From contig JASCQW010000133.1 in NCBI GenBank assembly GCA_030264375.1, positions 5,062,671 to 5,126,670 of the forward strand: a stretch of DNA of 64,000 nucleotides, given 5' to 3'. How positions within the stretch are numbered: the first letter of the stretch is position 1; each line of letters opens with the position of its first letter. The translations under genes were made by a program, and so were the position numbers. The notes under the pieces were generated by a model that saw only the letters and a list, made by a program, of their open reading frames with translations, ran no database searches and was not told the origin of the DNA. Source of the stretch: Carcharhinus longimanus. Taxonomy: Eukaryota. Positions 3,431-52,529 of this stretch are shown here, piece after piece.

Positions 3431-3451
3431 CTACACTGTGTACTTACATAT

Positions 3452-16640: not shown

Positions 16641-16693
16641 TTTCAAGGTGCAAAAGAACAATATGATGATTGTTCTCAATCTGTTCTCACCAG

Positions 16694-19900: not shown

Positions 19901-20158
19901 TGGCACAGTGGTTAGCACTGCTGCTTCTCAGCACCAGGGATCAAGGTTTGATTTCCAGCTTGGGTCACTGTCTGTGCGGAGTCTGCATGTTCTTCTTGTG
20001 ACCCTGTGGGTTTCCTCCCGCAGTCCGAAAGATGTGCTGGTTAGGTGCATTGCCACGTTAAATTCTCCCTCAGTGTACCAAACAGGCACTGGAGTGTGGA
20101 GACTAAGGGATTTTCAGTGTTAATGTAAGCCTATCTGTAACTAATAATATACTTTAAC
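19901..20158 (+). mobile_element. V-SINE with alternative tail
   Basis: TGGCACAGTGGTTAGCACTGCTG head; GACTAAGGGATTTTCAGTGTTAATGTAAGCCTA tail. Confidence 0.75.
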
Positions 20159-20348
20159 TTTTCTTTCTCCCTCTACACTCTTTGCTAGTTCACCATGACA
20201 GCCACACATCAACTTGTAGTCAGCTGTGCCATTTGTTCTCTAAATTAGAATTTTTTTACTTTGTCAAACAAAATTGGCTGGGGAATAATTATGGAAGGAG
20301 GAGGAATATTTTATCTGGCAATGATGTTGGGATAATTTTTTTTTATAG

Positions 20349-20454
20349 GTAAAGACACTGTTGGCTGAAGGCATCAATCGTCCTCGGAAGGGTCAGGATG
20401 TTGGTGACCATCCTCCCATCACCCCGATGAGGTCTGCCACAGAAACTGAATTAG
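20349..20454 (+). CDS. TOP3B: TOP3B coding exon 10 (VKTLLAEGINRPRKGQDVGDHPPITPMRSATETEL)
   Basis: DHPPITP motif; TAG|...G|GTACAA; 106 nt. Confidence 0.96.
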
Positions 20455-21214
20455 GTACAAGTTTATTGGCTTTATCCTCAGCAGAGTTATCCACACTATA
20501 AGTCTTGGATGGCCCTCAGAGCCCTGACAATTTCGGTGCTCATTCATGAAATTTTTATGGATCGATCTTATTCACAATATTCTCTGAGATTAATTTCATG
20601 GACCTGCAGGTTTGGAAAGAATTTCTCTTAATGCTGTTGCCTCATTGGTGGATAAATCCTCATTTGGAGCACTGGGTTGAAAATAATTAATCAAAACATG
20701 AGGATCTGTGGTTTTTGGCTAAGTGACTCACAATTTTAAAAAAGCATGGGCACTCCTAGATGAAGTTAATGATCTGAGTTGCTGTTCTCCTGGAAATGAC
20801 ATACCAAGTTATACTTTTTTTTCAGAATTTGGTTAGAAGTAGTACTATTAGAACTGCTATATCCCTGTGTGTAACTGAAGGCCTTTTGCAGTCTGTTATG
20901 GATATAAAGTCATCAAAATGATCCTCTTTCTTTCCCAACCCTTCCCCAACATACACAATGAGCAGTCCTATTTTGTTGACATCTCAGAAGTCTGACACAT
21001 TGAAGCGTGCTTGGTTCCTTGCTGTCAGTATCTTGTTCTGCATCAGCTATTGCAAAATCATGACAGTCAGATAGCAACAGGAAATGCAAATAGGTATGAC
21101 TGAAAAATCAGCCTAGTTAGCTGGTCTCAGCTCGAGTGATGGTAGCCTCTAACAGTGGTCAAGTTTGGAGGAGAAATTTGCGGCATTTCCTCATCCTGAT
21201 TTGTCTGTTTATCT

Positions 21215-21615
21215 GTTGATTCTTTCATGGGGTGTTGGCAAGGCTGGCATTTGTTCTTGCAGAAGGGCCTCCTTCCGTACTGATGGGATTTTATGATTCC
21301 TTATCCCTAACAGCCTGTGTGGCTGACTTAGGTCATTTCAGAGGGCAGTTAAGAGTCAACCATATGTGGACCTAGAGTCACATGTAGAGCAGCTAAGGAA
21401 GACCAATTTCCTTTCCTAAAGCATAGTAGTGAACCAGATGGTTTTTACAATGATCAATGATATTTTATGGACAATTGCTTAATATTCCAGATTTATAAAT
21501 TGAATTTGAATTCCACTAGCTGCTATATTGGCATTTTAACCCTTATCCCCAGAACATTAGCCTGGGCTCCTGAATGACTGGTCTAGTGACATTTCCACTA
21601 CTCCACTGTCTCCCT
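21215..21615 (-). mobile_element. Third tRNA-like SINE family (other copies 45495-45848 -, 49357-49558 +, 16985-17250 +)
   Basis: Shared segments TTAAGAGTCAACCA, GTGAACCAGATGG...TTTACAA, GAATTCAAATT; A/B-box-like head at the right end. Confidence 0.6.
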
Positions 21616-22854
21616 AATAGTTCCTGGGGTCACCCTGTTGGAAATAGGGTGAAATGTGTGTTGATAAGGTCAAAATCTTCCAAACTGTGGGAAGAAAATG
21701 GAAGAAGTAATCTTCAATCAGATTAGCAAGATGAGTGGGTATAGCAAAATTACTTTCTGGGAGATATTGATTATCCTCTTAATCGACTAAGGCTGAGAGC
21801 AAGCAAGTGGAATCCTGTAAATATGTACAAAACTCCTTTTTCCAGCAGAATGCTACATGTCTATAAAGTAGGGGAAATTGATTGATCTTGTCATGATTAA
21901 TGAAATGAATTAAGTAGATGAGCTAAATATGAGTGAGCACCTTGGGATTGTTAATCACAATATAGGGTTTGAAATTCAACTAAAAATGGAAAAGTTAGTA
22001 TGAAAACTAGAAACCAGTTTGGATTAGGGCTGACATGAGAAAAATAAGGAGTGAGCTAGCTGAGGTAAAATGGAAGAAGATATTGGCAGAATGTAACCCT
22101 TAAGGAGGTTAAAATGTACAAAATAAAAATATTCCAGTAAAAAAAAAAGTAAGGAAGTGTTGGTAGCTTTAGCATGTCTTAGATAAATAAGATGGTTTTA
22201 AAAAAATTGATATCTGCTGAGGCACTAAATTTACAAGCGCTGGCAAGTACAAAGGTGGAGATGCAGTCACAAGAAAATGCTGTGTGTGGATGATGGGAAA
22301 AGAGGTGTCCAAGACTTTTGTCCTGCTTCTCCCGGTTCCCATAGATTCCGATTGCTAAATAAAGCATCATTCTTAACCAGGCCTCTTCGGCCTACTCTGC
22401 TGCACCTTGCCAGAATTACTCCCAAGTCGTGTTAAAAATCACAACACAGCACTAATGGAACTTAGGAATACAGGTTTACAGCAACTTAAAGGTAGACTTT
22501 ATATTAATAGGGCCATGTTTAAAAAAAAGTTGTATCCTTTATCTCTTGCGTAGAATTGTAAAAGGTAATGATGAGCCTTTACAAGACCTCAGTTATTGTG
22601 TTGTACACAATGTTGGCTCCATATTTGGAAAGGATATTGAGACATTAGAAATAAATGCAATTTTATTAGGATGTTGCCTTCCACAAGAAATACAAATATG
22701 AAGCAAGACTTGAAGGATAACGTTGGCTGGAAGTTTGCTTTTATTCATTTATGGGATGTGAATGGTATTGGCAAGACGAGCATTCCTTGCCCATTCCTAA
22801 ATGTCCCTGAGCAGAGAGAGGTGAACTACAACTTTGAACTGCTGCAATCTTTTA

Positions 22855-23029
22855 AGAACATAAGAAATAGGAGCAGGAGTAGGCCATCCAGCCCCTCGAG
22901 CCTGCCCTGCCATTCAATAAGATCATGGCNNNNNNNNNNNNNNNNNNNNNNNNNNNNNNNNNNNNNNNNNNNNNNNNNNNNNNNNNNNNNNNNNNNNNNN
23001 NNNNNNNNNNNNNNNNNNNNNNNNNNNNN
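22855..23029 (-). mobile_element. Young CR1/HER1 3' end inserted into an older repeat
   Basis: AAGAACATAAGAAATAGGAGCAGGAGTAGGCC is the reverse of the 12140-12170 tail. Confidence 0.75.
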
Positions 23030-23908
23030 CTTATTTTAAACAGGTTTTTAACAGGTAAAAATCTTAGCTCTCTCTCTGCTCCTTCACTCGTCTGCTTCAG
23101 CAAACAATGGAAGGCTTTTGGTACAGTGCTGTTACTCGGGATCTTGACCCAGCGACTGAAGGAGTTGCAATGTATCTCCAAGTCAGATGACCATCATTGT
23201 GCACCTGTTTGTGCATATGCTCCTGTGGCCCTTGTTCTACCAGGGAGTAGAGGTCCTGTGTTTGGAAGGTGCTGCCGAAATAGCCATTGTGAATATGATA
23301 GCATTGACAACATTAGGCTGTTGTTTGACTGATCAGTGGAACAGCTCTCCATGGTGACTTGATCCCCTTTTGAAATTTATTCTCTCAGCTTTTTGATGAA
23401 GGTTGGTTTCCTTCCCATTGGTGAAGTAAAACCCCCAGTATCGTATCTACCCAGCATTATGTACTATCCCTCAGCAATGGGTTTTAAATGTTATTTAAAT
23501 GTTTATTTAACAGGAGGTTGCTGACGGATGCTGATTGTTCATGTACGTACCTCTCTCTTTTGGTTTCATTTCACAACAGTTCCAGCTGTGTGTCATCATT
23601 CAACAGCTACTAGATGCTGCGAAATGGTTAACAAAAGAAACAATGCCACGTAGTCCTTTTTTTTAAGAACTGAATTGACTTCCAAAGCAATGGGAATTTA
23701 ATGAGCCCAATTCTACATAATGGAATTATAGAATGCGATCTCTAAAATATCAGTGATAATGAAGTAGATATGAAATTTTACTTAGTCAGTTGTAGCTTAT
23801 TATTCACTAACATAAATATGATTTAATGTCATTCTCAATTTTTCCTTTTCAAAATTTATTAGTAATTTGAAGCTAAAGTTTAAATGTCGAATACCTTTCT
23901 CTTAACTA

Positions 23909-24257
23909 GGCAGCACAGTGGCTCGCACTGCTGCCTCAGTGTCACCGGGCCGGGGTTCAGTTGCAGCCTTGGGTCACGGTCTGTGTGGAGTTTGCGCATT
24001 CTCCTTGTGTCTGCTTGGGTTTCCTCTGAGTGCTCCGGTTTCCTCCCGGGTTCCAAAGATGTGCAGGTTAGGTGGATTGGCCATGGTAAATTGCCCTTTA
24101 GTGTCCCAAGATGTATAGGTTAGGAGTTTAGTGGGGTAAATATGTGGGGTTAGAGGGATAGGGCCTAGGTAAGATGCTTTGACGGAGAGTAGGTGCAGAC
24201 TAGATGGGCCGAATGGTATCCTCCTACACTGTAGGGGTTCTATTCTATGATTCTATT
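23909..24257 (+). mobile_element. Full-length V-SINE (HE1-like) just upstream of exon 11
   Basis: GGCAGCACAGTGG head, V core, CR1-type TTCTATGATTCTAT tail. Confidence 0.85.
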
Positions 24258-24394
24258 ATGCATGTACTAGATGTGCTACGTGATTTGGCTGATATATTGG
24301 GCAGAGCTGAATGATCTTTATTCTGTATTCCTGTTCATTGGATTCTCATTTTTCTCTAACCTGGTGTTTTGTTGTCATTGTTTCACTGTTTCAG

Positions 24395-24541
24395 GTAGTG
24401 ACGGCTGGAGGCTATATGAGTACATCACCAGACACTTCATTGCTACAATCAGTCATGATTGCAAATATCTCCAAACCACCATTGCGTTCAGTATCAATAT
24501 GGAACATTTTACGTGTTCGGGGAAGACACTGATTTCACCTG
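24395..24541 (+). CDS. TOP3B: TOP3B coding exon 11 (SDGWRLYEYITRHFIAT...GKTLISP)
   Basis: CAG|...G|GTAAGA; 147 nt; conserved YEYITRHF. Confidence 0.96.
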
Positions 24542-24619
24542 GTAAGAGTAAAGTTAATGTTTATACAGTGAATTCACTGAGAGGAAAGGGAATATATTAA
24601 AAAGTGCTTCATAAATTCA

Positions 24620-26465
24620 TCGCTGTTACAACAAGTTCTCAGTAAGCGCTTGGCCCAGATGGGTTACCCGGGCAAGCACTCAGATCCAGTGCAGACCAGC
24701 TGGTGGGAATATTCGGAGACGTCTTTAACCTCAATCTGAGGTCCCTATCTGCTTCAAGAAGACAACCATTAGCCCAAAGGAAAACCAGGCAGTGTGTCTT
24801 AATGACTATGATCCGGTGGCTTTGACATTCATCATTATGAAGTGCTTCAAAAAGCTAGTCATGGCATGAATCAATTCCAGCCTCCCAGACTGCCTGGATC
24901 TACGACAGTTCATCTACCGCTGTAACAGGTCCACAGCAGACGCCATCTCCCTGGCCCTGCACTCAACCCTGGAACACATGGATAACAAAGATACCTACAT
25001 CAGACTCCTATTTATCGACTACAGCTCAGCCTTCAACACCATTATTCCTATGAAACTCATCTCCAAACTCCATGGCCTGGGGCTCGGCTCCTCCCTCTGC
25101 AACTGGATTTTGAACTTCCGAACCCACAGACCACAATCAGTAAGGATAGGCAACGCCACCACCTCCACAATCATCCTCAAAGCTGGTGTCCCACAAGGCT
25201 GTGTCTTCAGCGCCTTATTATACTTCTTATACACCGAGGACTGTGGCCAATTCCCCTCCAACTCAAGTTTGCTAATGGCACCATCATAGTACATCAGATC
25301 TCAAACAATGACAAGATGTGAGTACAGGAAAGAGATGGAGAACCTGGTGAACTGGCGTGACAACAATAATCTCTCCCTCAATGTCAACAAAATGAAGGAG
25401 ATTGTCGTCAACTTCGGGAAGCATAATGAAGGACATGCCCCTGTCTATATCAATGGGGACAAAGTAGAAATGGTTGAAAGCTTCAAGTTTTTAGGTGTCC
25501 AGATCACCAACAATGTGTTTTGGTCCCTGCAAGATGACATGATCATTAAGAATGCCTCTACTTTCGCAGAAAACTAAGGAAATTTGGCATGTCGACTACA
25601 ACTCTTTCCACCTTGTACAGATGGACCATAGAAACCGTTCTTTCTGGTTGTATCACAGCTTGGTGTGGCTCCTGCTCTGCCCAAGACTGCAAGGAACTAC
25701 AAAGGGTTGTGAAGGAANNNNNNNNNNNNNNNNNNNNNNNNNNNNNNNNNNNNNNNNNNNNNNNNNNNNNNNNNNNNNNNNNNNNNNNNNNNNNNNNNNN
25801 NNNNNNNNNNNNNNNNNNNNNNNNNNNNNNNNNNNNNNNNNNNNNNNNNNNNNNNNNNNNNNNNNNNNNNNNNNNNNNNNNNNNNNNNNNGACCATGCTG
25901 CCTGATTTCGCTAAAACCCCCTATCCATCCAGGGACCATATCCCTCTATTCCCATCCTTATTCATGTATTTGTCAAGACGCCCCTTAAAAGTCACTACCA
26001 CATCCACTCGGCAACAAGTTCCAGGCACCCACCATCCTCTGTGTAAAAAAAAAAATCTGCCTTGTGGATTTCCTTTAAACCTTGCCCCTCGCACCTTAAA
26101 CCTATGCCCCCCGGTAATTGACTCTTCCACCTTGGGGAAAAAAGCTTCTGACTATCCACGCCTCTGATAATCTTGTAGACTTTTATCAGGTCGTCCCTCA
26201 ACCTCCATCGGAAAAAGATACAACCTCAGTTGGAAAAAGACAAAAGTCGAGTAACCTACTCGAGAACAGCTTCTTCCTTGCTGCCATCAGACTTTTGAAT
26301 GGACTTACCTCGCATTAAGTTGATTTTTCGCTATACCCTAGCCATGACTGTAACACTACATTCTGCACCCTCCTTTCCTTCTCCATGAATGGTATGCCTT
26401 GTCTGGATAGTGCAGAAGAAACCATATTTTTCATAATAATCCATGGGATAGTAATAAATTAAATT
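24620..26465 (+). mobile_element. Rex1/Babar LINE, 5'-truncated and frameshifted, with nested CR1 fragment (25891-26205, -)
   Basis: [18 protein letters not shown]...LCNWILNF...RPQSVRIG...GVPQGCV; VEMVESFKFLGVQIT; SGCITAW; 3' tail ending AATAAATTAAATT. Confidence 0.88.
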
Positions 26466-26490
26466 CTGTTGCTGAAAATTACAACTTTAA

Positions 26491-26678
26491 ATGATGTGGA
26501 GAAGCCAGCATTGGACTGAAGTCTCAACACCAGATTATAGTCCAACAGGTTTATTTGGGATTATGAGCTTTTGGAGCGGTGCTCCTTCCTCAGGTGACTC
26601 ATCTGAGAAGGAACAGCACTCTGAAAGCTGTGATTCCAAATAAACCTGTTGGACTTCAACCTGGTGTTGTGAGACTTC
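26491..26678. mobile_element. Fold-back Penelope-like element: about 160-bp imperfect palindrome (26518-26678) with hammerhead-like cores
   Basis: Left arm 26518-26597 is the reverse complement of right arm 26599-26678; possible TSD AACTT(T/G)AAA. Confidence 0.8.
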
Positions 26679-28148
26679 TAACTTGAAATAAAACATTAGT
26701 TTCCATAAGGATGAATTTTAAAACTCTACTTGGGTTCTGAAGGATCAGAAGAAAATGAATATTAAAACATTGCACCCTCTAAGTTGCAATATTTTACATT
26801 GCTAAATTCCTTCAGTGGTAAATTAAATAACTTGCATATTTTCAAACTTATTTTGTTTCACAAGAAAAATTTAACTTTCTAATTAGAGAGCCTCCAGTTC
26901 ACTACCGATCCTGCATCCCCAGCCTCCCAGTTCCTAATCCTCCTCATTGCCTCGCATCCTACCCTTCCCCAAACCTCAGAGTTGTAACCTTTCACCTTTG
27001 CAACCCTCAATATTGTGACCATTTCCCAATCCTCTTCACCGTCTCCAAGTTGTGGCCTTTTCTGCCTCCCTGAACCTCCCACTTCCTGACTTGTTCTCTT
27101 GCCACTTCCCTACTCCGATCTGGTGTTCCTGTTCAAGATCCAAATTCAGTTCAGATCCAGAGCCCTGCCGTTGTGGAAATGTGAATCTCATTGGTGCAGA
27201 AGTACCAAGCTGGAGCTGCTGTAGTCCATTTCTTAAACACACACGTTCGCCACTTTGCTCTCCTAAACCTTCACTGTGTGAAAGGGCTCAGGAGAAGAGC
27301 AGTGAGACAGGGGAGTAGCTTTGACAGTCATGTTTAAAAACAAAACATGGATTGTAGCAGCTAAGTCACATCTGGATCTTGAACCTGAATGCACATCCAG
27401 ATGACGAAAATGATGAGAGGGTATGTCCGGGAGGCCATAACTGCTCCAAAATGGTGTCCGTTGGATCCATGGGAAATTATGTCAAAAGGATTATGTGATG
27501 CTCATTGAGATTACAGGCCCCAATCGCGAAACAATATTAAATGGAGGAATATAAATGACTAATTATACTACACCCTTCTGTCAAAGGTACTGCTGCTGTA
27601 GTTTTACAGAGCAGGGTGTGGTTCCAATGCAACTGCTATAAACGTTTTCTACTTGAATGCAGAAATTTGTAATTTATAAACTGGGCACAGAAGATGATTT
27701 TATACATTCTTATTTTAATTTATATTGTCCTATGGATATCTCTATTCCTATGGGGCCTTAATATTGCAGTAGGAAATCAAAATATTTGCATATGCACTGC
27801 CACTGAGTTTTTTTGAAGGGTAAAACTGGCAAAAACTTGCACTTTTGGGGCATTTTTAAAGCTGGATGGAATTAACTTTGTTAAAATATATTGCTTTTTG
27901 ACCAGAATAAATTTTAACTGAGAATGAAACGCAGCGCAACTCAGAAAACAGTTATTACCGATTTGTTTTGACTGACATTTTCCACAGCATTTGTTTGTGC
28001 AGGAGTTCAATATGCCTGATTGTATCCTGTTGTTATGTATCACTGTTGATTAAGATGTGTGTGGAGGAAAGGTTGGAGAAGCCAGCTTGTTCAGTATTTC
28101 TGGGTGTTTCCCATGTCGTGTATAAGGGACTTTGTTGTTCCTCTCCAG

Positions 28149-28322
28149 GTTACACTGCGGTGATGCCATGGCAGAGCCTGGCAGAGGAGGAGACCCTTCC
28201 CATTTGTGAACGAGGTGACATTTTTACTGTCGATGAGATTAAGTTGTTAGAGAAACAGACAAATCCACCTGACTATCTGACGGAGGCAGAACTCATCACA
28301 TTGATGGAAAAACATGGCATTG
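28149..28322 (+). CDS. TOP3B: TOP3B coding exon 12 (YTAVMPWQ...PPDYLTEAELITLMEKHGI)
   Basis: PPxxLTEAxLxxxMEKxGI motif; CAG|...G|GTAAGT; 174 nt. Confidence 0.97.
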
Positions 28323-29777
28323 GTAAGTCAGTACATATCCAGCCATTGGTCGTTCTGGTCTAACTTTAGCTTTTAAACAATTTTTAAGGCACTTGTCATG
28401 GTTCAGTGCATCATTTAATGCTGTGTAAACACGCACATTATGTGTTAGAGATGAAGTATAGTGATAGGCCTGAAAATGGTAATGAATTCACAATGTAACA
28501 AGCATAAGGATAGTTGTTTTATTTTTAAAATTTTACCACCAGGACTTTTAGCCCAGCACCACAGATGTTAATACTGTTTCTCATTATAGTAATGAAACCA
28601 AGAAACATTCAAACACCCACAGCTGCAGTCTCAACTTCAGCCTCTGACCTTGAACACTCCCCCTCCAGTTTATGTACTTATTTCAACATCTGATCCTGTC
28701 CTTGTCTCAGCACTAATTTCAGTCTCTGATCACCAATCTCCCCTTTCTATTCATTCTCTAATTTCAATTTCTAAAGTTAGTTCGTTCATTTTGTCTAATG
28801 ACATGTGCATTCCTTTCAGGTAATATTTTAGCCACAGCCTTTTCAATCCCAGCACTAGTTTCAGCAGAGAACCATTGCCAGGCTCTAAGCCAATGTTGTT
28901 AATCCATTTTGTGTCCAAAGGTGGTCCCACTGTAATCTCCTTGCATTTTCTGTTTTGATAGTTGAGTGGAATTTTACAGGGGGTGGGTGGAATAGGGTGG
29001 GGCTTTTCTCAGCACAACCCCCACACAACCCCCTCCCCCCCCCACAAAGGAAAATTGGTGCCTCTTTAATCAACACTCAACAAGGCTGTCCCACCTCGAA
29101 AGCTGCCAGCCAATCTGACTGGCTCTGGCAGTGCCCACAGCCCCAGAATTCAGTATGTGCACTTCCAGAATTCAAGGAAGCCCTGGGAAGAAGACAACGT
29201 GGATCCCAGCGTGGGATAAGTTGGGTTTATTGGATAGGAAATGACCAGGGAGCAAGGGGGAAGAGGGATTGAGGGGTGTGGGGGCATCGATTTGAGACCA
29301 GGCAGGGAGTAACAAAGGTGGAGTAACGTCTTGATAGTGGAGGATGGGTGCCTTTGTTGGACAGAAGGCTTGGGGTGTGCAGAATGTACCTCCTCTTCTT
29401 CCCACATTTTGAGCAGAATTCTTAAAATAATGACCTACCCACTCCCACTTGCCTCCCTATGCCAACCATTTTATTGCGTGGGCCATATAATATTCGGGTC
29501 ACTTGGTTTGCTAATCAGTTTAGTTGCCCTTTAATGCCTTATTTAAAAATGGATAGAGGGCTGCTGATTTTTGTACCAGTCCACCTTTTGTATTATGGGG
29601 AATAGGTCAGAGTTGGGTCGGAATATGGAGGGTGAGCCACCCATCGTATTTTATGTTTTCCCTTCCCTGCCACAAATATGTCTGCAGTGAGTCCTAAACT
29701 CTAGCCCCAGCTGTATTTATTTGCAGCTTTCCTTTTTTTTCCCTCCCTTCTCTCATTTGCCGACTCTTCAAACCCCC

Positions 29778-30075
29778 TTTGACAGCACCTTCTAAACCTA
29801 CACCACCTAGAGGTGCAGACACGCAGGAACACGCCTACATGGAATTTCCCCTCGAAGCCACACACCATCCTGTTTTGGAACTATATCGCTGTTCCGTCAT
29901 TGGTGCTTGTTCAAAATCCAAGAGCTCCACTCCTAACAGCGCGGTGGGTGTACCTACACCGTAAGCCCTGCAGTGGTTCAAGAAGATGACTCACCACCAC
30001 CTTTTCGAGGGCAGTTAGGGATGGCCAACAAATGCTGTCATAGCCAGAATGCCCATGTCCCATGAAAGAAATTTT
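29778..30075 (+). mobile_element. LINE 3' fragment of a second CR1-like family (other copies 62325-62935 -, 22738-23290 -)
   Basis: CTGCAGTGGTTCAAGAAG...TCACCACCACCTT...GGGCAGTTAGGGATGG...CCCATGAA, shared in reverse with 62325-62430. Confidence 0.6.
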
Positions 30076-30393
30076 AAAACATTCCAGGATTCTAAATTTT
30101 CACTTCAGTTTCCATTTTTTTCCCCGTTATGTAGACTGACAAAACCAAGGGGTCACAAAATAGTTTTCACTAAGTTTCACTTGAGGAACTCAAACCTACC
30201 TGTTTAAGAGTGAGGAACTTTGCATTGTTTGGAGTGTTTTGTAGTTTCTGTAAACTCACATGAAATAACTTATATTTATATCACATGTTTAACATAATAA
30301 AACATACCAAGATACTGCACAGAAACATTACAAAAGATAATCTGGCAATGAGCCAGTTTGGCGGATATGACCAAAGGCTTAGTCGAAGGACAG

Positions 30394-30691
30394 TTTATTC
30401 ATTTATTAGTTCCAAGTAGGCTTATATTAACACTGCAATAAAGTTACTGTGAAAATCCCCTAGTCGCCACCTCTGCCTTTACAGGTACACTGAGGGAGAA
30501 TTTAGCATGGCCAATACACCTAACCAGCGCGTCTTTCAGACTGTAGGGGGAAACCGGAGTACCTGGAGGAAACCCATGCAGACACAGGGAGAACGTATAG
30601 AGTCCACACAGACAGTGACCTAAGCCAGGAATCGAACCCAGGCCCTGGTACTAAGAGACAACAGCACTCACCGCTGTACCACTGTGTTGCC
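30394..30691 (-). mobile_element. V-SINE with alternative tail, nested in an L2-like remnant (about 30330-31400, -)
   Basis: TTACTGTGAAAATCCCCTAGTCGCCAC tail; GGAATCGAACC is a reverse B-box; flank CTTAAAGGAGG...GGGAGGGAATTCC is L2-like. Confidence 0.75.
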
Positions 30692-32930
30692 TCATTGTCT
30701 TAAAGGAGGAATACAAGGTAGAGAGATGGAGAGGTGTAGGGAGGGAATTCCCAAGCTTTAGGTCTTAGGCAACTGAAAGCATGGCCATCAGTGGTGGGGT
30801 AATTGAAGATCTAGGATGCTCTAGGGACCCAAATTAGCTGTTCACAATACCTCGGAAGGTTATGGGGTTGGAGGAGATTACAAGAAAATATGAAGGAAGT
30901 GTGATGGGGGAAAGAAGGATGTGAATTTTAAAGTCAAGACATTGACCTAGAGCCAAATTAAATCAGTGAGTGCAGGGATAATAGGCGAGCAGGACTCAGT
31001 ACAAGTTAAAACACAGATACCAGTGTTTTAGATGATCTCAAGTTTAAGGAGGGTAGAATGTGGAAGACAAGCTAGGCATAGTCAAGTCTAGAGGTCACAA
31101 AAGAATAAATGAGACTTTCAGCAGCAGAGGAGCTGGTCTGTAGTGAAGATAGGTAATGTTAAGGAGATGAAAATAGGGGGTCTTCATGATGGCACAAATA
31201 TGTGGATGGAATCCCATGTTGGGATTAAATAAGGTTGTGAACAGAGAGGTTTAATCTCAGACTGGAGCCAAGGAGAACAAGAGTTGGTAGTTAAGGAGTG
31301 GAGTTTGAGGTAAAGATCAAAAACAATGGCAGTTATACTGGGTGTCAGAGATTTAACAACAGCAGAGGAGTGGAGAGGCGGTAGTGAAGTGGTACACCTA
31401 TTCCTGGATCATCTTATTACTAATCCTGAAGCCTAATTAACACTACGTTATCGGGGGTGATCAACCGTTACCAAACAAATACATCTACATTGACCATTCC
31501 ATTACTGACTCATTGGTTTTGGATTTGACAGTTCCATTACCAATTTATTTTGCATCCAAATTTATAGTTCCATTACCAATCTGTCCATCTTCATGGCTGA
31601 TCAGCTGCATCTGCTGACCATCCATTAATAATCCAGTTTATAGCTGAATTGACTGGCCCTCTACCAGTTCTGTGTTGTGGAGGCTAACTGTCCCACAGTT
31701 AACCCCTATCCACATCAGCACCAATGGTCACCAGTAAAGCACCAATTATAGCCTTATTCAGATGGAACCACGTAACAATTTTCATACATCACGTTAGCAG
31801 TCTAGTTGGATCAAACTACCAAGTTTGACCATTTGTTTCTAGACTACTTGCCATAGTTTTCAACTTGTAAGACCTCAGATTATAATTGAGATGATTTTGG
31901 TGCTCATACAGAACTAAAGTTATAATTTTCTGACGTCACTGTACTCGATATTGAAGTTCCTTTGGGAACTGAAAAATGAGTAAGTTGATTCTTGTTTAAT
32001 ATTCACTGCAGTTAGCATAGCGTTTATTGTCCAATTATCTGCTGGTGTTTATGAGTCATATCTATAAATACACTCCAGTGATATGTTTGTATGGCAGATA
32101 GCATCAATACTGTCAAAGCAGTTACTCCAATTAGGTATGTTGCTTTGAAAATATGAAATAAAAACAGAACATCAAAAATGTAATTATTTTCTGTAAGAGA
32201 ATGCAATTAGAATTCATTTCAGTTCGACTTGGGTTCAAATTTCCAAACAAACTTTTGAGTTTGAAGCCCCAAACTTCAGCTCTGAGTTTGAGTTTAAATA
32301 TATTTCTGAANNNNNNNNNNNNNNNNNNNNNNNNNNNNNNNNNNNNNNNNNNNNNNNNNNNNNNNNNNNNNNNNNNNNNNNNNNNNNNNNNNNNNNNNNN
32401 NNNNNNNNNNNNNNNNNNNNNNNNNNNNNNNNNNNNNNNNNNNNNNNNNNNNNNNNNNNNNNNNNNNNNNNNNNNNNNNNNNNNNNNNNNNNNNNNNNNN
32501 NNNNNNNNNNNNNNNNNNNNNNNNNNNNNNNNNNNNNNNNNNNNNNNNNNNNNNNNNNNNNNNNNNNNNNNNNNNNNNNNNNNNNNNNNNNNNNNNNNNN
32601 NNNNNNNNNNNNNNNNNNNNNNNNNNNNNNNNNNNNNNNNNNNNNNNNNNNNNNNNNNNNNNNNNNNNNNNNNNNNNNNNNNNNNNNNNNNNNNNNNNNN
32701 NNNNNNNNNNNNNNNNNNNNNNNTTGCTTGTCAGGCATTTTATGGCCCACTTTTCCTGAATTTGGGAAAGATTGAATGAAATAATACCTCTGACTTCTCC
32801 TACCAAGGCCAAAACCTAAGGCTGCAGGTTTATCCCAGTGGCAAAACAGTTAGGGCTCTGAGAAGACTGCATATGGTGCTTTATCTGAGACTTGGTAATG
32901 TTAAACAAAATTGTATCTCTTGATTTTCAG

Positions 32931-33059
32931 GAACGGATGCCAGTATCCCTGTCCATATCAACAACATCTGTCAACGCAACTATGTCACTGTTGAGAGTGG
33001 CCGCAGATTGAAACCCACCAACCTTGGGATTGTTCTCGTTCATGGATATTACAAAATTG
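32931..33059 (+). CDS. TOP3B: TOP3B coding exon 13 ([18 protein letters not shown]...[15 protein letters not shown])
   Basis: GIGTDAS spans the exon 12/13 junction; TTTTCAG|...G|GTAAAA; 129 nt. Confidence 0.97.
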
Positions 33060-33214
33060 GTAAAAGTGCAACTGAGGGAAACTTCCTCCAGCTCTGAAAC
33101 CAGGAGCTTATTTAAATTTTCAACTGTGCTGATCTGCCTTGTGTGTTTTAGATGATTTGTAAATATGATCTAATTGTTGCTCTTTGGAGTTCCTTTATAC
33201 AAACTTATCAGTCT

Positions 33215-33216
<2 letters not shown>

Positions 33217-33252
<36 letters not shown>
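33217..33252. repeat. (CA)n microsatellite, about 18 units
   Basis: Directly visible. Confidence 0.95.
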
Positions 33253-33256
<4 letters not shown>

Positions 33257-33436
33257 ACTGGAAAGAGTTGGCAGATTGTCTCCACAGAACCAATATTAAC
33301 AGAAATGCTTCTTTTTACTCTTGAAACCTACAGGACCTGAACTCTATTCAGTCTGACCATAATCTCTGGAGAAAGCTCTATCCAAGTTTCCTAACGTTCT
33401 GTCTCAGATCAGTGAACTCAATGTGGGCTGGGAGGA

Positions 33437-33747
33437 TCATAGAATCCCTACAGTGCCGAGAGAGGCCATCCAACCCATCAAGCCTACACCGACAACAATC
33501 CCACCCAGGCCCTATCCCAGTAATCCCACTTATTTACCCTGCTAATCCCCCTAATCCACACATACAGGTTAGATAGCACGCCCTATCCATCTAACCTGCA
33601 CGTCTTTGGACCTTGTGATGAAACCAGAGCACCCAAAGGAAACCCACACAGACATGGGGAGAATGTGCAAACTGCCACGCAGTCACCCGAGGCTGGAATT
33701 TAACCTGGGTCCCTGGCATTGAGGCAGCAGTGCTAACCACTGTGCCG
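33437..33747 (-). mobile_element. V-SINE (HE1-like)
   Basis: ATCATAGAATCCCTACAGTG ... GAGGCAGCAGTGCTAACCACTGTGCC. Confidence 0.85.
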
Positions 33748-33878
33748 AGGTGGCAGTATTGTTGGGAGTGGATGCTGGGTGGTGGTGTCAGTGGATATTA
33801 TCAAGCAGATTCCATCAGTTGGGTGCTGTGCCCTTTTCTCTAGTTGGTAATTTGTATGATCTTTTTGTATTTTAACAG

Positions 33879-34028
33879 ACCAGGAACTTGTCCTTCCCAC
33901 CATCCGCAGTGCAGTCGAGAAGCAACTCAGCCTCATAGCTGCGGGCAAAGCTGACTTCCCACCAGTTCTGGAGCATGCCCTCAATATCTTCAAGAGAAAG
34001 TTCCATTATTTTGTAGACTCCATATCTG
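33879..34028 (+). CDS. TOP3B: TOP3B coding exon 14 (QELVLPTIRSAVEKQLSLIA...FKRKFHYFVDSIS)
   Basis: CAG|...G|GTACAA; 150 nt. Confidence 0.96.
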
Positions 34029-35075
34029 GTACAACTAAATGTTATGATGTTTTGTACTGTAACAAATTCTGTGACTAATTGTTAAACTGTTCAATAGTCA
34101 GAAACAAGAGCATGTTTTGTAAGGCACCTCTCAGACACAGAACTTGATTCTCCATTCAGCGCTGTTGTCAATTCTCTGCTGGGAACAGAGCCTTGCGCAA
34201 TTTTTCCCAAGGTCTGAACAGTTACCCACATCTCATCTGTAGATTTGACTGAGTAGGAATCTTTCACCTGTCACGGCTCATAGGCCATATTTAGATAACA
34301 TGGAAGAATTGCAAAAGTTTCATCAAAACTTCTGCATCAAGGACTTACAAGACAGGCATCAATCTCAGCCCCAACACTGCATATGTTCCACAGTGCTCAA
34401 TGTTGGGTTGGTGGAGTGGGCAAGAAAATGGAAGATGGTGTTTACCTCACACTTAGAGGTGATGTATTTCAGGTCAAACAGTAAACTGGAATATGCTGGG
34501 AAAGGTAGATGAAGTGAGAGATCTTGGCATTCAAGTGCACAGATCCCTGAAGGTAGCTGTACAAGTAGCTATGGTTGTAAAGAAGGCGGTTAGAATGTCC
34601 CACTATTGCCTGAGCTGAGATGAGTTGCCACAGCTTAGACTTGGGTCTATCAATACTCAATCAGACACTGTGTTTACACATTAGGCCATTATTCAGAGTA
34701 CTTTGTGTTCAATTTTTTCAACAAGAGTTTTGATTTGTAGAGGTGGAATTGATGTTCCTGGCTGACAATAAGCATCTTTTTCAGATAATAATTCTGTCTT
34801 ATTAGATTGTAACAGTGTCTGCATCCAAAGGCTGGAACTGTCCTGCTTGCATCCTGCGGTAATACAGTCTTTGTCACTGGGGTTATACAGTATATGTCAG
34901 AAAAGTATTTGCCGTTGCTAAATTGATTGCATTTGGGTGAATCTTGACCTGCATTGGAGGTCTGGAAGAGGTTTACTCTTGGAAAGTCAGTGGAGAATTG
35001 GCGGTTGCTTACTCTTCAACTTTCAGTGCTCTTTTGTGGCTACTTTTGCTCAGTCTGCTCTCTGTTGCTCGACAG

Positions 35076-35176
35076 GTATGGATGAATTAATGGAGGTGTC
35101 ATTTTCTCCAATTGCTGAGACAGGGAAGCCTCTGTCCCGCTGTGGCAAGTGTCATCGATTCATGAAGTACATTCAG
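35076..35176 (+). CDS. TOP3B: TOP3B coding exon 15 (MDELMEVSFSPIAETGKPLSRCGKCHRFMKYIQ)
   Basis: Start of the C-terminal Cys-rich zinc-ribbon region; CAG|...CAG|GTTGGT; 101 nt. Confidence 0.96.
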
Positions 35177-36779
35177 GTTGGTAAAGTGCATCTACAGCTT
35201 CAGGGAGGGAGTTTGTAGAGGGCCAGGGATTGATTCACTTTCAGTAATCCCAAGCATGGTCTCTTGAAATTGCATTAATATCTGTTATCGATACAGTGTT
35301 CATGTGTGCAACAAATGCTTAAGAATTGGAACACGCTGCCTGGCAGGATGGTGTATATGGATTCAGTTGTAAACTTCAAAAGGTCATCGGATTAAATTCT
35401 TGAAAGAGAAAATAATTTGTATGGGGAAAAGTTGACATAATGGGAATAACTGGATTGATGTTTGAAAGTGCCTGCTTTTATTTGATGACCTGAATGGTTT
35501 CATTCTGTGTTGTACTGTATGATTCTATAAATATGATTCTCATCAATATGTTTCAGGAATCAAGGAACCCAGTGGTTATACTAAGTTACTTAAAGAAGGG
35601 AGGTTCTTGTGCAGCAAATTCAAGTACAGTCAGGGACAATTATGAATCTTATGATGAAAAAAGTATAACAATGACAGTAAGCTGCAGCCAATTTGAACAT
35701 GAGATACCAAACAGAAATAAGATTAACAACATTTACTTTGCTTTCGTGGCAGATAAATGCAAGTGGGGCACTGAGAACCTGCCTGTCCTTTTAAAAAGTA
35801 TTAACGACTTTTTTAACATAGAGAACAAACATTTAACATTGTATTTGAAAATGACACCTTTGACAATGCAGCACTCCATATCTGTATAAGTGCCCAATGT
35901 TGTATCCCAGAGACCCATTGGTGAAAGATAGAACTGGAGCCAATCTTTACTTACTTTAATATTTATTTACAGAATTACATATTACAAGTCTAACAACCTT
36001 TTTAACCCAACAACAATTTTAGTCTGTTTATTTCTACCAGGGCTGAAGTAAATCCTCAATTAATACTCACCATCTTCATACTTTTAAGAACAATTCATAA
36101 TTACTATCCAAGTCCTTCAATGGAACTTGACCAAAAGATACATTTCAGGCACAGATGGTTTAAGGAAAGTGCTGGACATCAATCAAAACCCCTGCTGGTG
36201 TGAATCTAGAATTCCATTCATGAAGAGGTGTCATGCATTTGAAGCATTAACTTGTAGCTTTACAGATTTTTATTATTTACTGTGCGTTTCTACAATTTTC
36301 TGTTTTTGACTCTGATTTCCAGCATTTCAGTTTTTATTTCTAGAAATCCACAATCTATATGCGTTATTCTTTTAGTTTGTGCATACTTACTAGGCCAGTA
36401 AATATAAGACTAGTACCACAAAACCATAGAATTCCTACAGAGCAGAAAGAGGCCTTTTGGCTCAATGAGTGTGTATCGACTCTCCAAAAGAGCATCCTAT
36501 CCAGGCCCTCCCCTGTAACCCCATATGCATTTATCATGGCTAATTCGCCTAACCATGACATCTTTGGATACTAAGGGGCAATTTAACATGGCCATTCCAC
36601 TCAACCGGCACATCTTTCGACATACCCTCACACTGGGAAGTGAATGGAAATCCAGCAAAAATACACACTATGGTTATAGGCAATTAATGGGAGTTCAGGG
36701 CTTTCATTCTTTAATTACCAAGTCTGTGAATGGGTTTCCAGGGCTCTCGTAGTGAATGGAAGTCCAAGATGCTCTGTGA

Positions 36780-37290
36780 TATGGCAATTGACCCAACCAA
36801 TCCATGCTGGTACTTATGCTGTCTCATGCCTACTCCCATGTTTCTTCTTCTAAACGTACCATCATAACCATCTATTACTTTCTCCCTGAAGTATTTGTCT
36901 AGTTTCTCCTTAAATGCATCTAATATTATTTGCTTCAGTTTCTCCCTGTATTAGCAAGTTCCAGATCCTTACCACTCTTTGAAGGAAATTGTTTTTTCCT
37001 CGGTTCCCTATTGGATTTCTTTGTGACCATTTTGTTTTAATGATTTCTAGTTGTGCTGTTTCCTGCAAGAGAGAACATTCTGGATCTACTCTGTAAAAAC
37101 TTCATGATTTTAAATATCTATTAGATTACGCCTCAGTTGTTTTTTCAGGAAAAAAGGGCGCCAGCCTGTCAATCCTTTTACTGATATGTATACCCATGCA
37201 TTTCTGATACATCTTTGTTAATCTTCTCTGCACCCTCTCCAGTGTCTCTATATCTCTTTCATAATGTAGTGACCAGAACTGCAAGCAGTA
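36780..37290 (-). mobile_element. Older CR1 fragment (resumes at about 38355-38460)
   Basis: TAATCTTCTCTGCACCCTCTCCAGTG...GACCAGAACTG, reverse CR1 C-terminal motifs. Confidence 0.6.
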
Positions 37291-37309
37291 CAATCAGAAC
37301 TGCAAGCAG

Positions 37310-38352
37310 CAATTGTTTACGATTTACATAGATGATTTGGAGTTGGGGACAAAGTGTACTGTGTCAAAATACGCAGATGACACTAAGATGGGTGGAAGAG
37401 CAAAGTGTGCAGAGGATGCTGAAAGTCTGCAAAGGGATGTAGGTAGTCTAAGTGAGTGGGCAAGGGTCTGGCAGATGGAGTACAATGTTGGTAAATTTGA
37501 GATCATCCATTTTGGTAGGAATAACAGCAAAATGGACTATTATTTAAATGGTAAAAAATTGCAACATATTGCTGTGCAGAGGGACTTGGGTGTCCTTGTG
37601 CAGGAATCACAAGGAGCTGGTTTGCAGGTGCAGTATTAAGAAGGCAAGTAGAATTTTGTCCTTCATTGCTAGAGAGATGGAGTTTAAAAATTGCGAGGTT
37701 ATGTTATAGCTGTATAAGTTGCTGGTGAGGCCACATCTGGAGTACTGTGTACACTTTTAGTCTCGTTACTTTGAGATCGGNNNNNNNNNNNNNNNNNNNN
37801 NNNNNNNNNNNNNNNNNNNNNNNNNNNNNNNNNNNNNNNNNNNNNNNNNNNNNNNNNNNNNNNNNNNNNNNNNNNNNNNNNNNNNNNNNNNNNNNNNNNN
37901 NNNNNNNNNNNNNNNNNNNNNNNNNNNNNNNNNNNNNNNNNNNNNNNNNNNNNNNNNNNNNNNNNNNNNNNNNNNNNNNNNNNNNNNNNNNNNNNNNNNN
38001 NNNNNNNNNNNNNNNNNNNNNNNNNNNNNNNNNNNNNNNNNNNNNNNNNNNNNNNNNNNNNNNNNNNNNNNNNNNNNNNNNNNNNNNNNNNNNNNNNNNN
38101 NNNNNNNNNNNNNNNNNNNNNNNNNNNNNNNNNNNNNNNNNNNNNNNNNNNNNNNNNNNNNNNNNNNNNNNNNNNNNNNNNNNNNNNNNNNNNNNNNNNN
38201 NNNNNNNNNNNNNNNNNNNNNNNNNNNNNNNNNNNNNNNNNNNNNNNNNNNNNNNNNNNNNNNNNNNNNNNNNNNNNNNNNNNNNNNNNNNNNNNNNNNN
38301 NNNNNNNNNNNNNNNNNNNNNNNNNNNNNNNNNNNNNNNNNNNNNNNNNNNT
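37310..38352 (+). mobile_element. Young CR1/HER1 RT fragment, mostly gapped
   Basis: ORF 37313-37639 FTIYIDDLELG...KYADDTK...WQMEYNVGK...QRDLGVLV. Confidence 0.9.
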
Positions 38353-38795
38353 TAAGAAATAAATGCCAGTGTTTGGTTTGCATTTTTTTATGGCCTAGCG
38401 AACCTGGAGCACAACTTTTTAATGGTGGATGTATTTGTACTCCACGATCCCTTTGTTCTGTGGTTCTGTAGTTATCAGATCTGTGATGATGTCCAGGATT
38501 GTATTTCTACAGCTACCAGAAATGTGAATGTTGTCCAGAGTTTAATTCTCTAGTTGAAAGGTCTTTGAATGGGTATCCAGGGTTCTAGTTCTGTAATTAC
38601 TAGGTTTGCAAGTGGAGGTCAGGCACTAAAACACTGGTTGGTGAGTATGTCAGTGAAAGTTCAGAGCTCCAACACGAATTGCTGAATATGTATAAAATAG
38701 TACTGGACCTAATGCCTGGAAGATGTTAAACCCACGTTGCACTACTAACATTATTACATTATTAGTAGTACTAACATTTGATTGTTATCTCCCAG

Positions 38796-38991
38796 GCCAA
38801 ACCCAGCCGGATGCATTGTTCGCATTGTGATGACACCTACAGCTTACCCCAGAATGGAACCATCAAACTGTACAAAGAGCTCCGCTGTCCTCTGGATGAG
38901 NNNNNNNNNNGGTCATCTGGTTCCAGAGGGAAGAGCTACCCGCTATGTCCATATTGCTACAACCATCCACCGTTCCGTGATATGAGGAAAG
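38796..38991 (+). CDS. TOP3B: TOP3B coding exon 16 (AKPSRMHCSHC...CPLDE[gap]SSGSRGKSYPLCPYCYNHPPFRDMRK)
   Basis: CxxC pairs; 10-N gap at 38901-38910; CAG|...G|GTGAGA. Confidence 0.95.
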
Positions 38992-40005
38992 GTGAGAGCT
39001 GCCAAAACCAATGCTGACTTCACTCATTGGTTCATTTTGTGAATTTGTCACAAATAGAAAATAATTCTGCTTCTCCTGGTTTGTTTATTTTTATTTTGTT
39101 TTGTCGCTTCCTGAGCATGCTGACTCTTACTGTTGTGTAGGTATCATCAGTACCCAATCTTGTGGCCATTTTTAATTTGAGAGTGTAAACAGCGACTCGT
39201 GGCAGATGTTTGACTGTACTGAATGTCACAGTCTTCATCCACAAAAACTAACCTGTAGGAGTTATTGGAAAGCATTTCACCCCACCCTAGATCAGGGCTT
39301 CTGAAGCTGAGTATATTATCCACTTTCAGCACAAACAAGAGATCGATCCTAATACCTCCTGATTTGAATGGCTCAGTATCACACCATAGTGTTATCCCAC
39401 TGGGGAAGGTCTATCCACCCTCGCAAAAAGGAGTATCTATTATGCACACCTCCCCCCAACCTAATACATGACCAAACCTATAGCTCAATGTCCATAATCC
39501 AGAATGTAGGCACCAGCAAATTGAAATGTGTAGGTGCTGTGAGAAATCAGGAAATAGTGAATGATTAGAAGCATAGGCTTTCAAGAACAGAAAATTGCTT
39601 GTGGGAAAGCACACCTGTGGGGGCATGTTATGAGAATTCTACTCAAATAACCAAGTTACAGTGTGCTATTTTGAATTTGGCTGCAGTATGTAAATTGCAT
39701 ATAATTTGTGATTTATTTCTACAATATAATACTTTCCCACATTATACTAATGCAGCCTTTTGGCTTTAACCATTTAAAAGTATTCATTCTCCCCTGCCCA
39801 CCACAGCCTCCTGTATCCCGTCTGTTTCCAATACATCCCCAAACTCCTCTTCAGCCGTCATGCTTTGTCATTGTGCATCATTCTATTTAATGAACAGAGT
39901 TTGAATCCTATGAGTTCAGTGCTCAGGACTGGATGAAAAATATCTAGAAATGTCAGTGCGATATAGAAGATGTACCTCATGACAGAATTCTTTTTTTCCC
40001 CTCAG

Positions 40006-40493
40006 GAATGGGGTGTAATGAATGCACCCATCCAACATGTCAGCATTCACTAAGCCTGCTGGGGATTGTCCAGTGTGTGGAATGTGAAAGTGGTGTGCTT
40101 GTCTTTGACCCCACCTCGGGCCCCAAGTGGAAGATGGCTTGTAACAAATGCAACGTAGTGGTGCATTTCTTTGAAAATGCCCACAGAGTGAAGGTGTCAT
40201 CTGAAACTTGCGATGTGTGCGAGGCTGCAATTGTTGACGTGGACTTCAACAAAGCAAAGTCACCGCTACCTGGCGAAGCAACACAGCATTCAGGCTGTGT
40301 CTTCTGCGATACGGTGTTTCAGAACCTCGTTGAGCTGCAGTATGCCAAAATGAAGNNNNNNNNNNNNNNNNNNNNNNNNNNNNNNNNNNNNNNNNNNNNN
40401 NNNNNNNNNNNNNNNNNNNNNNGACCCCCAGGCAGGAACAATCCAAAGAAACCCAAAGACAAAATGGCTGCATTAGCTGCTTATTTTGTGTAG
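40006..40493 (+). CDS. TOP3B: TOP3B terminal coding exon 17 (MGCNECTHPTC...KDKMAALAAYFV*)
   Basis: Multiple CxxC; C-terminus matches vertebrate TOP3B (KDKMxALAAYFV); TAG 40491-40493; N gap 40356-40422 where the RGG box is expected. Confidence 0.97.
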
Positions 40494-50651: not shown

Positions 50652-51408
50652 CTTAGGTTTATCCCACCCTGCCCCTGGAGTTTTAAATTGGAAAGCTGAA
50701 CAGGAGTTTTGTAGAGTTATAGAGCAATATAGCATGGAAACAGGCCCCTCGGCCCAACTGGTCCATGCTGCCCTCCCAGCTAGTCCCAATTCCCCACATT
50801 TGGCCCATATCCCTCATCCTTTTCCATCCACGTCCTTATCCAAATACATTTTAAGGTTGCTATTATTGTACCTGCCTCAAACACTTTCTCTGGCAGTTCA
50901 TTCCACTCTCCTTGTGAAGAAGTTGCCCCTCAGGGCAAGTTGCCCCTCAGTGAGCCTCACATCTGTGGTGGGTAAAATTGCTGGAAGGTATTTTGAGAGA
51001 AGTTTCCACCTGCAACAGCTGCATAGGAAATGACAGGCCGAATGGCCTCCTTCAGTACAGTTACCATTCTGTTAAGTACGTCCCTGTAAATCCATGGGAA
51101 CTGGACAAGCCCAGGTTCCAGGGCTGAAATGTTGACGGATGTGATTGTTGCCCTGAAAGGGTGGGGGGGAAGGGGGAGAGGTGAGTGCTTAGTCCCTTAG
51201 TACCTCTGTTCTGCCATTCACACATTCTGCTCACTTAATGGATACTTATCACCTTTTTCAGCCTTCTTTGTCATAATTTAATTTCCTTTATCCAATTACA
51301 GCCCCTCATAGTATAAATTTCATCAGATTTTCTTTGATCCTAGCTCTGACAAGAGGTCACCCAGACTTAAAGTTGGCTCTATTCCAAGGAAGCAGAACAT
51401 CCCAGCCA

Positions 51409-51587
51409 GGCAGCACAGTGGTCAGCACTGCTGCCTCACAGTTCAGGGATTCAGGTTCAATTACGGCCTCCGGTCATTGTCTGCTTGGAAATTTTAATTC
51501 TCCTTGTGTCTGCATGGGTTTCCTCTGGGTGCTCCAATTTCCTCCCACCGTCCAAAGATGTGTGGATTCAGTGGACTGGCACGGTGC
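51409..51587 (+). mobile_element. 3'-truncated V-SINE abutting the PPM1F promoter array
   Basis: GGCAGCACAGTGGTCAGCACTGCTGCCTCACAG...GGTTCAATT...TCCAAAGATGTG. Confidence 0.8.
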
Positions 51588-51588
51588 T

Positions 51589-52036
51589 CAGAGAGCATGC
51601 GTTAGACTGGGGTGGGCGGGGCTAAAACAGGTTAGCAGAGCGCAAGCGTTAAATTGGGGTGGGCGGGGCGAAGCTGGGTAACGAGAGCGCAAGCGTTAAA
51701 TTGGGATAGGCGGGGCTAACCTGGGTGAGCAGTGCGCAAGCGTCAGACTGGGGTGGGCGGGGCTAACCTGGTTTAGTAGAGTGCAAGTGTTAAACTGGGT
51801 TGGGCGGGGCGAAGCTGGGTTAGCAGAGCGCAAGCGTTAAATTGGGATGGGCGGGGCTAAACCTGGTGAGCAGAGCGCAAGCGTCAGACTGGTGTGGGCG
51901 TGGTGCGTAACTGTAACGCATGCGTTTATATAAGGGTGGGCGGGGCGAGCGTTGCCAAATCGAGCGCATGCGTTATTAGGGTTGGGCGAGGTGCCTTTGA
52001 AGGAAGCGCATGCGTTATTGACGGGTGGGCGGGGTT
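51589..52036 (+). promoter_or_regulatory. PPM1F promoter tandem array: about 10 units of about 47 bp, each with GCGCA(A/T)GCG and GGGCGGGGC
   Basis: Unit starts at about 51589, 51636, 51682, 51730, 51777, 51824, 51871, then 3 looser units; lies directly upstream of the CpG-rich PPM1F coding exon. Confidence 0.85.
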
Positions 52037-52153
52037 GGGATAATCACACCTGCGCAGTCCTGTTGCCAGCGGGTGGCTGACAGTTGGAGGCGCGTGAGCT
52101 GTCGGTTAGTCTGCCGCCGGCAATGACCCAGAGGGACTTGGCATGAAGCAGTA

Positions 52154-52359
52154 ATGACTGCTGCACCGGAGAAGGGCGAGACGATGGTGGCACCGGAGGG
52201 CAAGGATGTGCAACAGCTCTTGGACTCTTTCGTGCAAGAGTTTCCGACTCCCCTAGGCCCTGAGGACTCGTTACCCGTGCGCCTGCAAAGCCCCGTGCTG
52301 AGCAGGGATGAGCTGGAGGGGGAGTGCGCCGAAATGGGGCTGAAGCTGCTGCGGGACAG
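52154..52359 (+). CDS. PPM1F: PPM1F (CaMKP/POPX2, PP2C family phosphatase) first coding exon; remainder lies beyond the window
   Basis: LLDSFVQEFPTPLGPEDSLP...VLSRDELEGECAEMGLKLL aligns without gaps to the recalled human PPM1F N-terminus (FLDTLLQDFPALLNPEDPLP...VLSQEEVEGELAELAMGFL); donor AG|GTGAGA; synteny with TOP3B. Confidence 0.88.
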
Positions 52360-52529
52360 GTGAGATTGCAGGCTTGGGCTGGAATGCTCACTTTTCTGAT
52401 AAATTACCACAGCATGTTTAGTCTGAGCTGCCACCATCAGCTTTACGGTTAGGGTTACTCAGGCAGGGACTGTATGGAATGCATGAAATGTATGACCAAT
52501 CTTTTAAGGTTTCTTTGAGGATTGAACAA

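Follow-up and report, generated by a model that had tools for sequence, protein, structure and literature searches.

Promoter minisatellites built of transcription-factor sites are a known class. The mouse Dhfr promoter, a housekeeping CpG-island promoter, contains about four 48-bp repeats with an Sp1 GC box in each, and has no NRF1-like partner that we know of. In alpha-satellite higher-order repeats, a multimer of diverged monomers is repeated as a block in many copies, with block identity far above that of the monomers. The human TRIB3 promoter carries a 33-bp VNTR with a factor site in every unit, which arose by repetition of a single, conserved module and shows one to five copies, proven polymorphism and dose-dependent expression (PMC7425993). 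In the human gene for the reduced folate carrier, the promoter carries a polymorphic 61-bp repeat that binds Sp1 and AP2 and has a measured effect (PMC3899988). In CpG-island promoters that combine NRF1 with Sp1, NRF1 lies upstream of Sp1 and protection from methylation is expected (PMC11269187, PMC8286816); such promoters usually have one or few sites, often with the full consensus. No description of an array at the PPM1F locus was found in open-licence papers and preprints, as judged by title and abstract opening.

The array reported here lies in a 64-kb window (the whole stretch of DNA that was analysed, to which all coordinates refer) and consists of ten modules in tandem at 51589–52036, with a GC box and an NRF1-like motif in each on inspection of the sequence. 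Its features are as follows.

51589..51910, + strand: distal minisatellite, units 1–7, with a 47-bp period and a three-unit (141-bp) duplication (TRF, lag identities, permutation tests)
51911..52047, + strand: proximal units 8–10, with both motifs, an unchanged distance between the motifs and diverged spacers (motif and spacer cell counts, alignment)
51593..52015, no strand assigned: ten NRF1-like 10-mers, starting at 51593, 51640, 51687, 51734, 51781, 51828, 51875, 51916, 51964 and 52006 (consensus comparison; human affinities of comparable cores in PMC10810270 Table 2)
51613..52035, + strand: ten GC boxes, starting at 51613, 51660, 51707, 51754, 51801, 51848, 51895, 51937, 51983 and 52026 (consensus scan)
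52023..52039, + strand: four-G-tract (G-quadruplex-type) motif over the unit 10 GC box (pattern scan)
51656..51678 and 51797..51819: similar four-G-tract motifs (pattern scan)

Spacing between the seven distal cores is exactly 47 bp and the proximal spacings are 41, 48 and 42 bp (47, 47, 47, 47, 47, 47, 41, 48 and 42 bp from core to core in order), with unit 7 shortened to 41 bp. Over 51589–51900, TRF reports a period of 47 bp with 6.6 copies and 78% matches and a period of 141 bp with 2.2 copies and 87% matches, the two top scores among 13 rows in the window. The initial annotation had described a tandem array of about ten NRF1-like and GC-box units, a period of about 47 bp in the first seven, and diagnostic strings in units 1/4/7, 2/5 and 3/6; all of these are found where it placed them. 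A loose composite pattern, which was written from the array units themselves, has ten matches in the window, all ten inside the array. The unit junctions form loose inverted repeats of 15–16 bp.

Like the Dhfr promoter, the array has one GC box per unit of near-equal length in a promoter of the housekeeping CpG-island type, but it has more copies, an NRF1-like partner in each unit and a three-unit layer that Dhfr is not known to have. Like alpha-satellite, it repeats a multimer of diverged monomers as a block, but in 2.2 copies and at 86.5% identity versus 78–80% for the monomers. It shares with the TRIB3 VNTR the repetition of a single module with a factor site in every unit, but comprises ten diverged units with two motifs each, seen on one haplotype. 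With the folate carrier repeat it shares a long unit, two factor motifs and a promoter position, with a different second factor. It has the NRF1-upstream order of the combined NRF1 and Sp1 promoters, but in ten phased modules that are all sub-consensus for NRF1. The array looks like a real but fairly ordinary, old promoter repeat; it is also an unusually clean example, with ten two-motif copies at three divergence depths and motif, spacing and CpG retention in one sequence.

The gene context is defined by three further features.

52154..52359, + strand: first coding exon of shark PPM1F (protein phosphatase 1F), with a donor GT at 52360 (homologue search, tblastn)
51471..52370, no strand assigned: CpG island over the array, the leader and the first coding exon (windows with GC > 0.5 and CpG o/e > 0.6)
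1098..40493, + strand: TOP3B, the upstream gene on the same strand as PPM1F (Pfam domains in ORFs; ends read from the sequence)

The last GC box lies 119 bp before the PPM1F ATG (52154). The identity of the gene was confirmed by homologue search and tblastn: a 59-residue part of the exon had eight hits among 33 candidates, each a named PPM1F from a shark or ray (80–86% identity in sharks and 69% in a stingray), and residues 1–69 of two full PPM1F proteins aligned at 52154–52360. A PDB sequence search with the exon peptide gave no match at E ≤ 10. No second PPM1F coding exon was found by tblastn in 52360–64000, so the intron is at least as long as these 11.6 kb. Six CpG islands were called in the window (200-bp windows, GC > 0.5, CpG o/e > 0.6), with only those at the PPM1F and TOP3B starts exceeding 300 bp; the sequenced part of the interval from the TOP3B stop to the array contains no other. 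The island at 51471–52370 has the length (at least 200 bp), GC content (above 50%), CpG o/e (above 0.6) and location at a gene start expected of a CpG island, and the promoter-type position claimed for the array, just upstream of PPM1F and inside this island, holds. No strong splice acceptor precedes the ATG (AGs in 51900–52153 have at most nine pyrimidines in the 15 upstream positions, compared with 11 and 15 of 15 for two TOP3B acceptors), so the exon looks like the first exon. In human PPM1F the first exon is non-coding, and assembly gaps of about 1.4 kb between TOP3B and the array could hide such an exon here. A promoter role is the natural reading of the array from its position.

The TOP3B stop codon (40493) lies 11.1 kb before the array. 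The gene was recognized by Pfam matches to Topoisom_bac in three and Zn_ribbon_TOP3B in one of 48 scanned ORFs, selected from 307, and by terminal residues that we take to be those of TOP3B. Downstream, two out-of-frame ATGs precede the PPM1F start, at 52123 (seven codons) and 52143 (three codons), and a second in-frame ATG is present at 52184.

The GC boxes are strong candidate Sp/KLF sites. The Sp1 consensus is KGGGCGGRRY, which is matched by seven of the ten boxes, in agreement with the earlier assignment to Sp/KLF, and seven of the eight matches in the window fall within the array. The boxes are present as previously worded, except that the unit 3 box reads AGGCGGGG. In all ten units the GC box lies 19–21 bp downstream of the 10-mer, and this distance within the module is constant while the spacing between units floats. 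Four-G-tract motifs number 12 in the window, three of them in the array. Two other motif assignments were rejected: p53 half-sites are absent from the array, and a Pax-type core is not located at the 10-mers. Nothing on NRF1–Sp1 spacing was found in passages of PMC6238301.

The 10-mers are NRF1-like in every unit, as the initial annotation had proposed, but all are sub-consensus. The full NRF1 consensus GCGCNTGCGC occurs in none of the ten, with one mismatch in seven units, two in units 1 and 8 and three in unit 5. No unit has two intact TGCGC half-sites; seven units combine one mismatch with one half-site. The last base of the 10-mer is T in all ten units. The centre is a 2-bp A/T-rich step, AT in units 1, 8, 9 and 10 and AA/TT in units 2–7, the latter lying outside the cores measured in Tables 1 and 2 of PMC10810270. 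The AT centre had been assigned to the proximal units and is indeed found in units 8–10, but unit 1 has it too. The canonical core described in the proximal units is likewise present as CGCATGCG in units 8–10, but the window has no copy of the full GCGCATGCGC. The core of units 9 and 10, read on the opposite strand, bound human NRF1 with 1.27 µM versus 0.31 µM by ITC, with flanks that differ from those in the array; ‘weak binding’ is the entry for the double-change core that unit 8 carries, a lone half-site gave 3.76 µM and single changes in the site lowered reporter activity about threefold (PMC10810270). The proximal units are therefore not canonical NRF1 sites, since their cores bind human NRF1 less than the full site, and by these human data the putative NRF1 cores of the array would be about fourfold weaker or worse. 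The invariant T may have been inherited from the founder module, kept by selection for low affinity, or read by a different factor. In unit 5 (51781–51790) both CpGs of the 10-mer have been lost by C-to-T changes and the GC box is intact; none of the other motif CpGs, 30 in all, shows a loss of the deamination type.

In our reading, held with moderate confidence, the CpG-island promoter of PPM1F has the array as its upstream half, a cluster of strong Sp/KLF sites with low-affinity NRF1 sites that is old and has mostly been point-mutated since. Sp/KLF proteins on the strong GC boxes would hold the island open and unmethylated, and NRF1 on the weak sites two turns upstream would assist them. The binding and position rules applied here derive from human cells, in which an NRF1 site upstream of Sp1 contributes additional initiation, the stretch between the sites is depleted of starts, the most 3′ factor picks the start and factors of the NRF1/Sp1 type prefer a zone of roughly −120 to −40 (PMC11269187). 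Starts are therefore predicted just after unit 10, at about 52050–52120, where they would be set by the most 3′ modules. The predicted effect of NRF1 weakens with distance in one example promoter, and saturation is described in strong promoters (PMC13017510), which together suggest that the distal units add little output. They may matter more as a buffer against the SINE-like repeat that abuts the array.

51408..51587, + strand: 5′ half of a dispersed SINE-like repeat, CpG-poor, ending at unit 1 (repeat search, alignment)

The repeat is presumably HE1, and nine other copies at 70–79% occur in the window. Against a CpG o/e of 0.27 for the whole window, the array has values of 0.97 and 1.43, and the abutting SINE half one of 0.26. 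Of the motif CpGs, 27 of 30 survive, compared with 13 of 83 CpG-type cells in seven SINE copies, and retention extends to unit 1 and ends sharply at the SINE. In a cartilaginous fish, the genome is globally methylated, transposons included, and start-site methylation is inversely related to expression (PMC5437953). Elsewhere, Sp1 sites are described as protecting CpG islands (PMC6923324) and NRF1 as binding only unmethylated motifs (PMC6923324, PMC8286816). Because the motif CpGs have been kept in a globally methylated genome group, the array is probably unmethylated in the germ line.

The motifs are retained better than the spacers. Departures from the majority in units 1–7 number seven in 140 motif cells and 31 in 176 spacer cells (p = 0.0008, a value that treats as independent cells which are not); counted as minimum distinct changes, the difference is seven in 20 motif columns versus 20 in 27 spacer columns (p = 0.058). 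Units 8–10, in an alignment anchored on the motifs themselves, match the majority of units 1–7 at 53 of 60 cells in the motifs and at 31 of 76 in the spacers (16 of 29 in the linker and 15 of 47 in the outer spacers, which fall to 32% identity). The weaker of the two statistics for units 1–7 leaves room for a reading that we regard as rather unlikely, in which only the proximal modules matter and the distal seven arose neutrally, through slippage within an island that was already unmethylated. The loss of both 10-mer CpGs in unit 5 and of one in unit 1 is consistent with it, as is the dominance of the most 3′ factor over start choice (PMC11269187), but neutrality of the distal units sits poorly with their GC boxes, which differ in only three of 70 cells versus 31 of 176 in the spacers, and with CpG retention as far as unit 1 and its sharp end at the SINE. 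Should unit number differ among related sharks, they would allow a test of whether extra distal NRF1/Sp modules add output or only protect from methylation.

A bolder reading, which we consider doubtful, is that the two-factor module is under selection, with its 10-mer held off the NRF1 consensus (for low affinity or for a reader of the GMEB type), that the tenfold array forms a graded, methylation-sensitive barrier against the SINE, and that unit number differs between shark lineages and sets the PPM1F level. If true, a basal jawed vertebrate would provide, at this locus, a natural titration series with which to study promoter grammar. The narrower proposal that the main protein on the 10-mer is not NRF1 but another factor, such as the SAND/KDWK proteins GMEB1/2, seems to us improbable. 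The consensus of GMEB1/2 (PIF) is ACGY, one to nine bases and RCGY. This pattern fits eight of the ten units, among them unit 8, for which poor NRF1 binding is expected, but it is loose, and six of its 16 matches in the window lie outside the array. The NRF1-breaking T is kept in all ten units, including units 8–10 with outer spacers at 32% identity, but may simply come from the founder module, and the fixed 2-bp A/T centre is the geometry of NRF1 (PMC10810270).

The initial annotation had recognized two layers of duplication, and both are supported by lag identities and permutation tests. Self-identity of the array is 86.5% at a lag of 141 bp versus 80.4, 78.4 and 79.8% at 47, 94 and 188 bp, and is 84.4% at 235 bp. 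Nine of 13 pairs of units with a common minority base lie three or six units apart (mean expected 3.1; p = 0.0095 over all 5040 orderings, for which about p = 0.03 is fairer because period 3 was chosen post hoc), while the corresponding values are p = 1.0 for period 2 and p = 0.79 for period 4. Among nine shared minority bases, period 3 is followed in full by six, in part by one and contradicted by two. An earlier, cruder test on all 47 columns, including the diverged unit 7 tail, was not significant (p = 0.27). The three-unit pattern is genuine and modest, and fits one old internal duplication plus later drift. The suggested higher-order repeat is not supported in the satellite sense: the multimer is more alike than the monomers, but with 2.2 copies, only 6–8 points above monomer identity and 23 of 171 positions different between the 141-bp copies, many near-identical multimers are not what is found. 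The tails of units 1 and 6 (51622–51635 and 51857–51870) share a shifted register (one base gained and one lost) that keeps the exact 47-bp unit length and conflicts with period 3.

The idea that the array was amplified outward is not supported, since the outermost unit 1 is the most distant among units 1–6 (mean of 10.2 differences versus 8.0–9.4) and shares its AT centre with units 8–10, and the closest pairs, 4–7 and 3–6, are both internal. A tree of the units leaves six of seven inner branches open and, apart from a split of units 8–10 from units 1–7 at 88/94, gives no order. Nor are the proposed structural meanings, nucleosomal or helical, supported: 141 is arithmetically three times 47, and the proximal spacings of 41, 48 and 42 bp break the helical phase between units. 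We suggest instead that early duplication of one composite module (a weak NRF1-type site, about 10 bp and a GC box) gave rise to units 8–10 and to a forerunner of the distal block, which would then have expanded as a 47-bp minisatellite before one three-unit stretch was duplicated internally; since then the distal block would mostly have gathered point changes. Shark substitution rates are 1e-9 per site per year or less. At such rates the 23 differences in 171 positions would place the 141-bp duplication tens of millions of years ago.

An active VNTR rheostat, in which unit number would differ from one individual to the next and tune the expression of PPM1F, is in our judgement quite unlikely, and it is disfavoured by low purity. 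The array has the head-to-tail units of at least 10 bp with a factor site in each (by sequence) that define a promoter VNTR, every unit carries candidate activator motifs, and the TRIB3 VNTR (PMC7425993) and the folate carrier repeat (PMC3899988) are precedents. Its purity is low, at 78% unit identity, with no unit pair under five differences in 47 and a longest exact match of 29 bp, at a lag of 188 rather than 141 bp; impure repeats are described as stable (PMC3899988), so copy number would be expected to be stable here, yet in one study the correlation between purity-based predictors and the variability observed was only 0.13 (PMC4027155). G-rich units with G-quadruplex motifs could be unstable, and near-identical copies could have been merged during short-read assembly. 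The distal units lie 240–560 bp before the ATG, beyond the preferred zone of roughly −120 to −40, and the predicted NRF1 effect falls with distance in the example promoter (PMC13017510).

That the array is a dispersed satellite or transposon-derived repeat, near the gene by chance, is very improbable: it begins exactly at the SINE cut-off point, but blastn finds no further copy elsewhere in the 64-kb window (best outside match E = 3.5), Rfam has no match at E ≤ 1 in 50500–53000, the CpGs have been kept, and units 1–3 align with the 3′ parts of eight SINE copies no better than shuffles (p = 0.145–0.99). Derivation of the unit from the SINE 3′ half had been considered on short shared words seen by eye and was rejected when none of the eight copies beat the shuffles. 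A structured RNA at the array was rejected on the absence of Rfam matches in this search, and a coding array was rejected on its short reading frames, which reach at most 68 codons within the array.

Several minor observations concern other elements in the window. The TATA consensus is TATAWAWR; a perfect word lies in the unit 8 linker with a CA dinucleotide 30 bp downstream (51927–51957), 23 such words occur on the + strand of the window, and an alternative start there would place units 9–10 in the transcript. Pattern scans list, at 51951, 51996, 52062 and 52090, half X-box words around the array and leader and one more NRF1-like site, with one mismatch, in the leader. A CHR-like TTTGAA follows the unit 9 GC box and, with 89 such words in the window, is likely to be due to chance. 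The TOP3B promoter (939–1010) has no NRF1/Sp array; it contains an ETS-type motif at 1001 and, at 939, a full X-box-like palindrome that occurs just once in the window. RVT_1 fragments in TOP3B introns, at 24870–25286 and 37265–37636, are probably LINE remnants, and a 31-bp tandem repeat (3.6 copies, 72% matches) lies at 44310–44421 between TOP3B and PPM1F.
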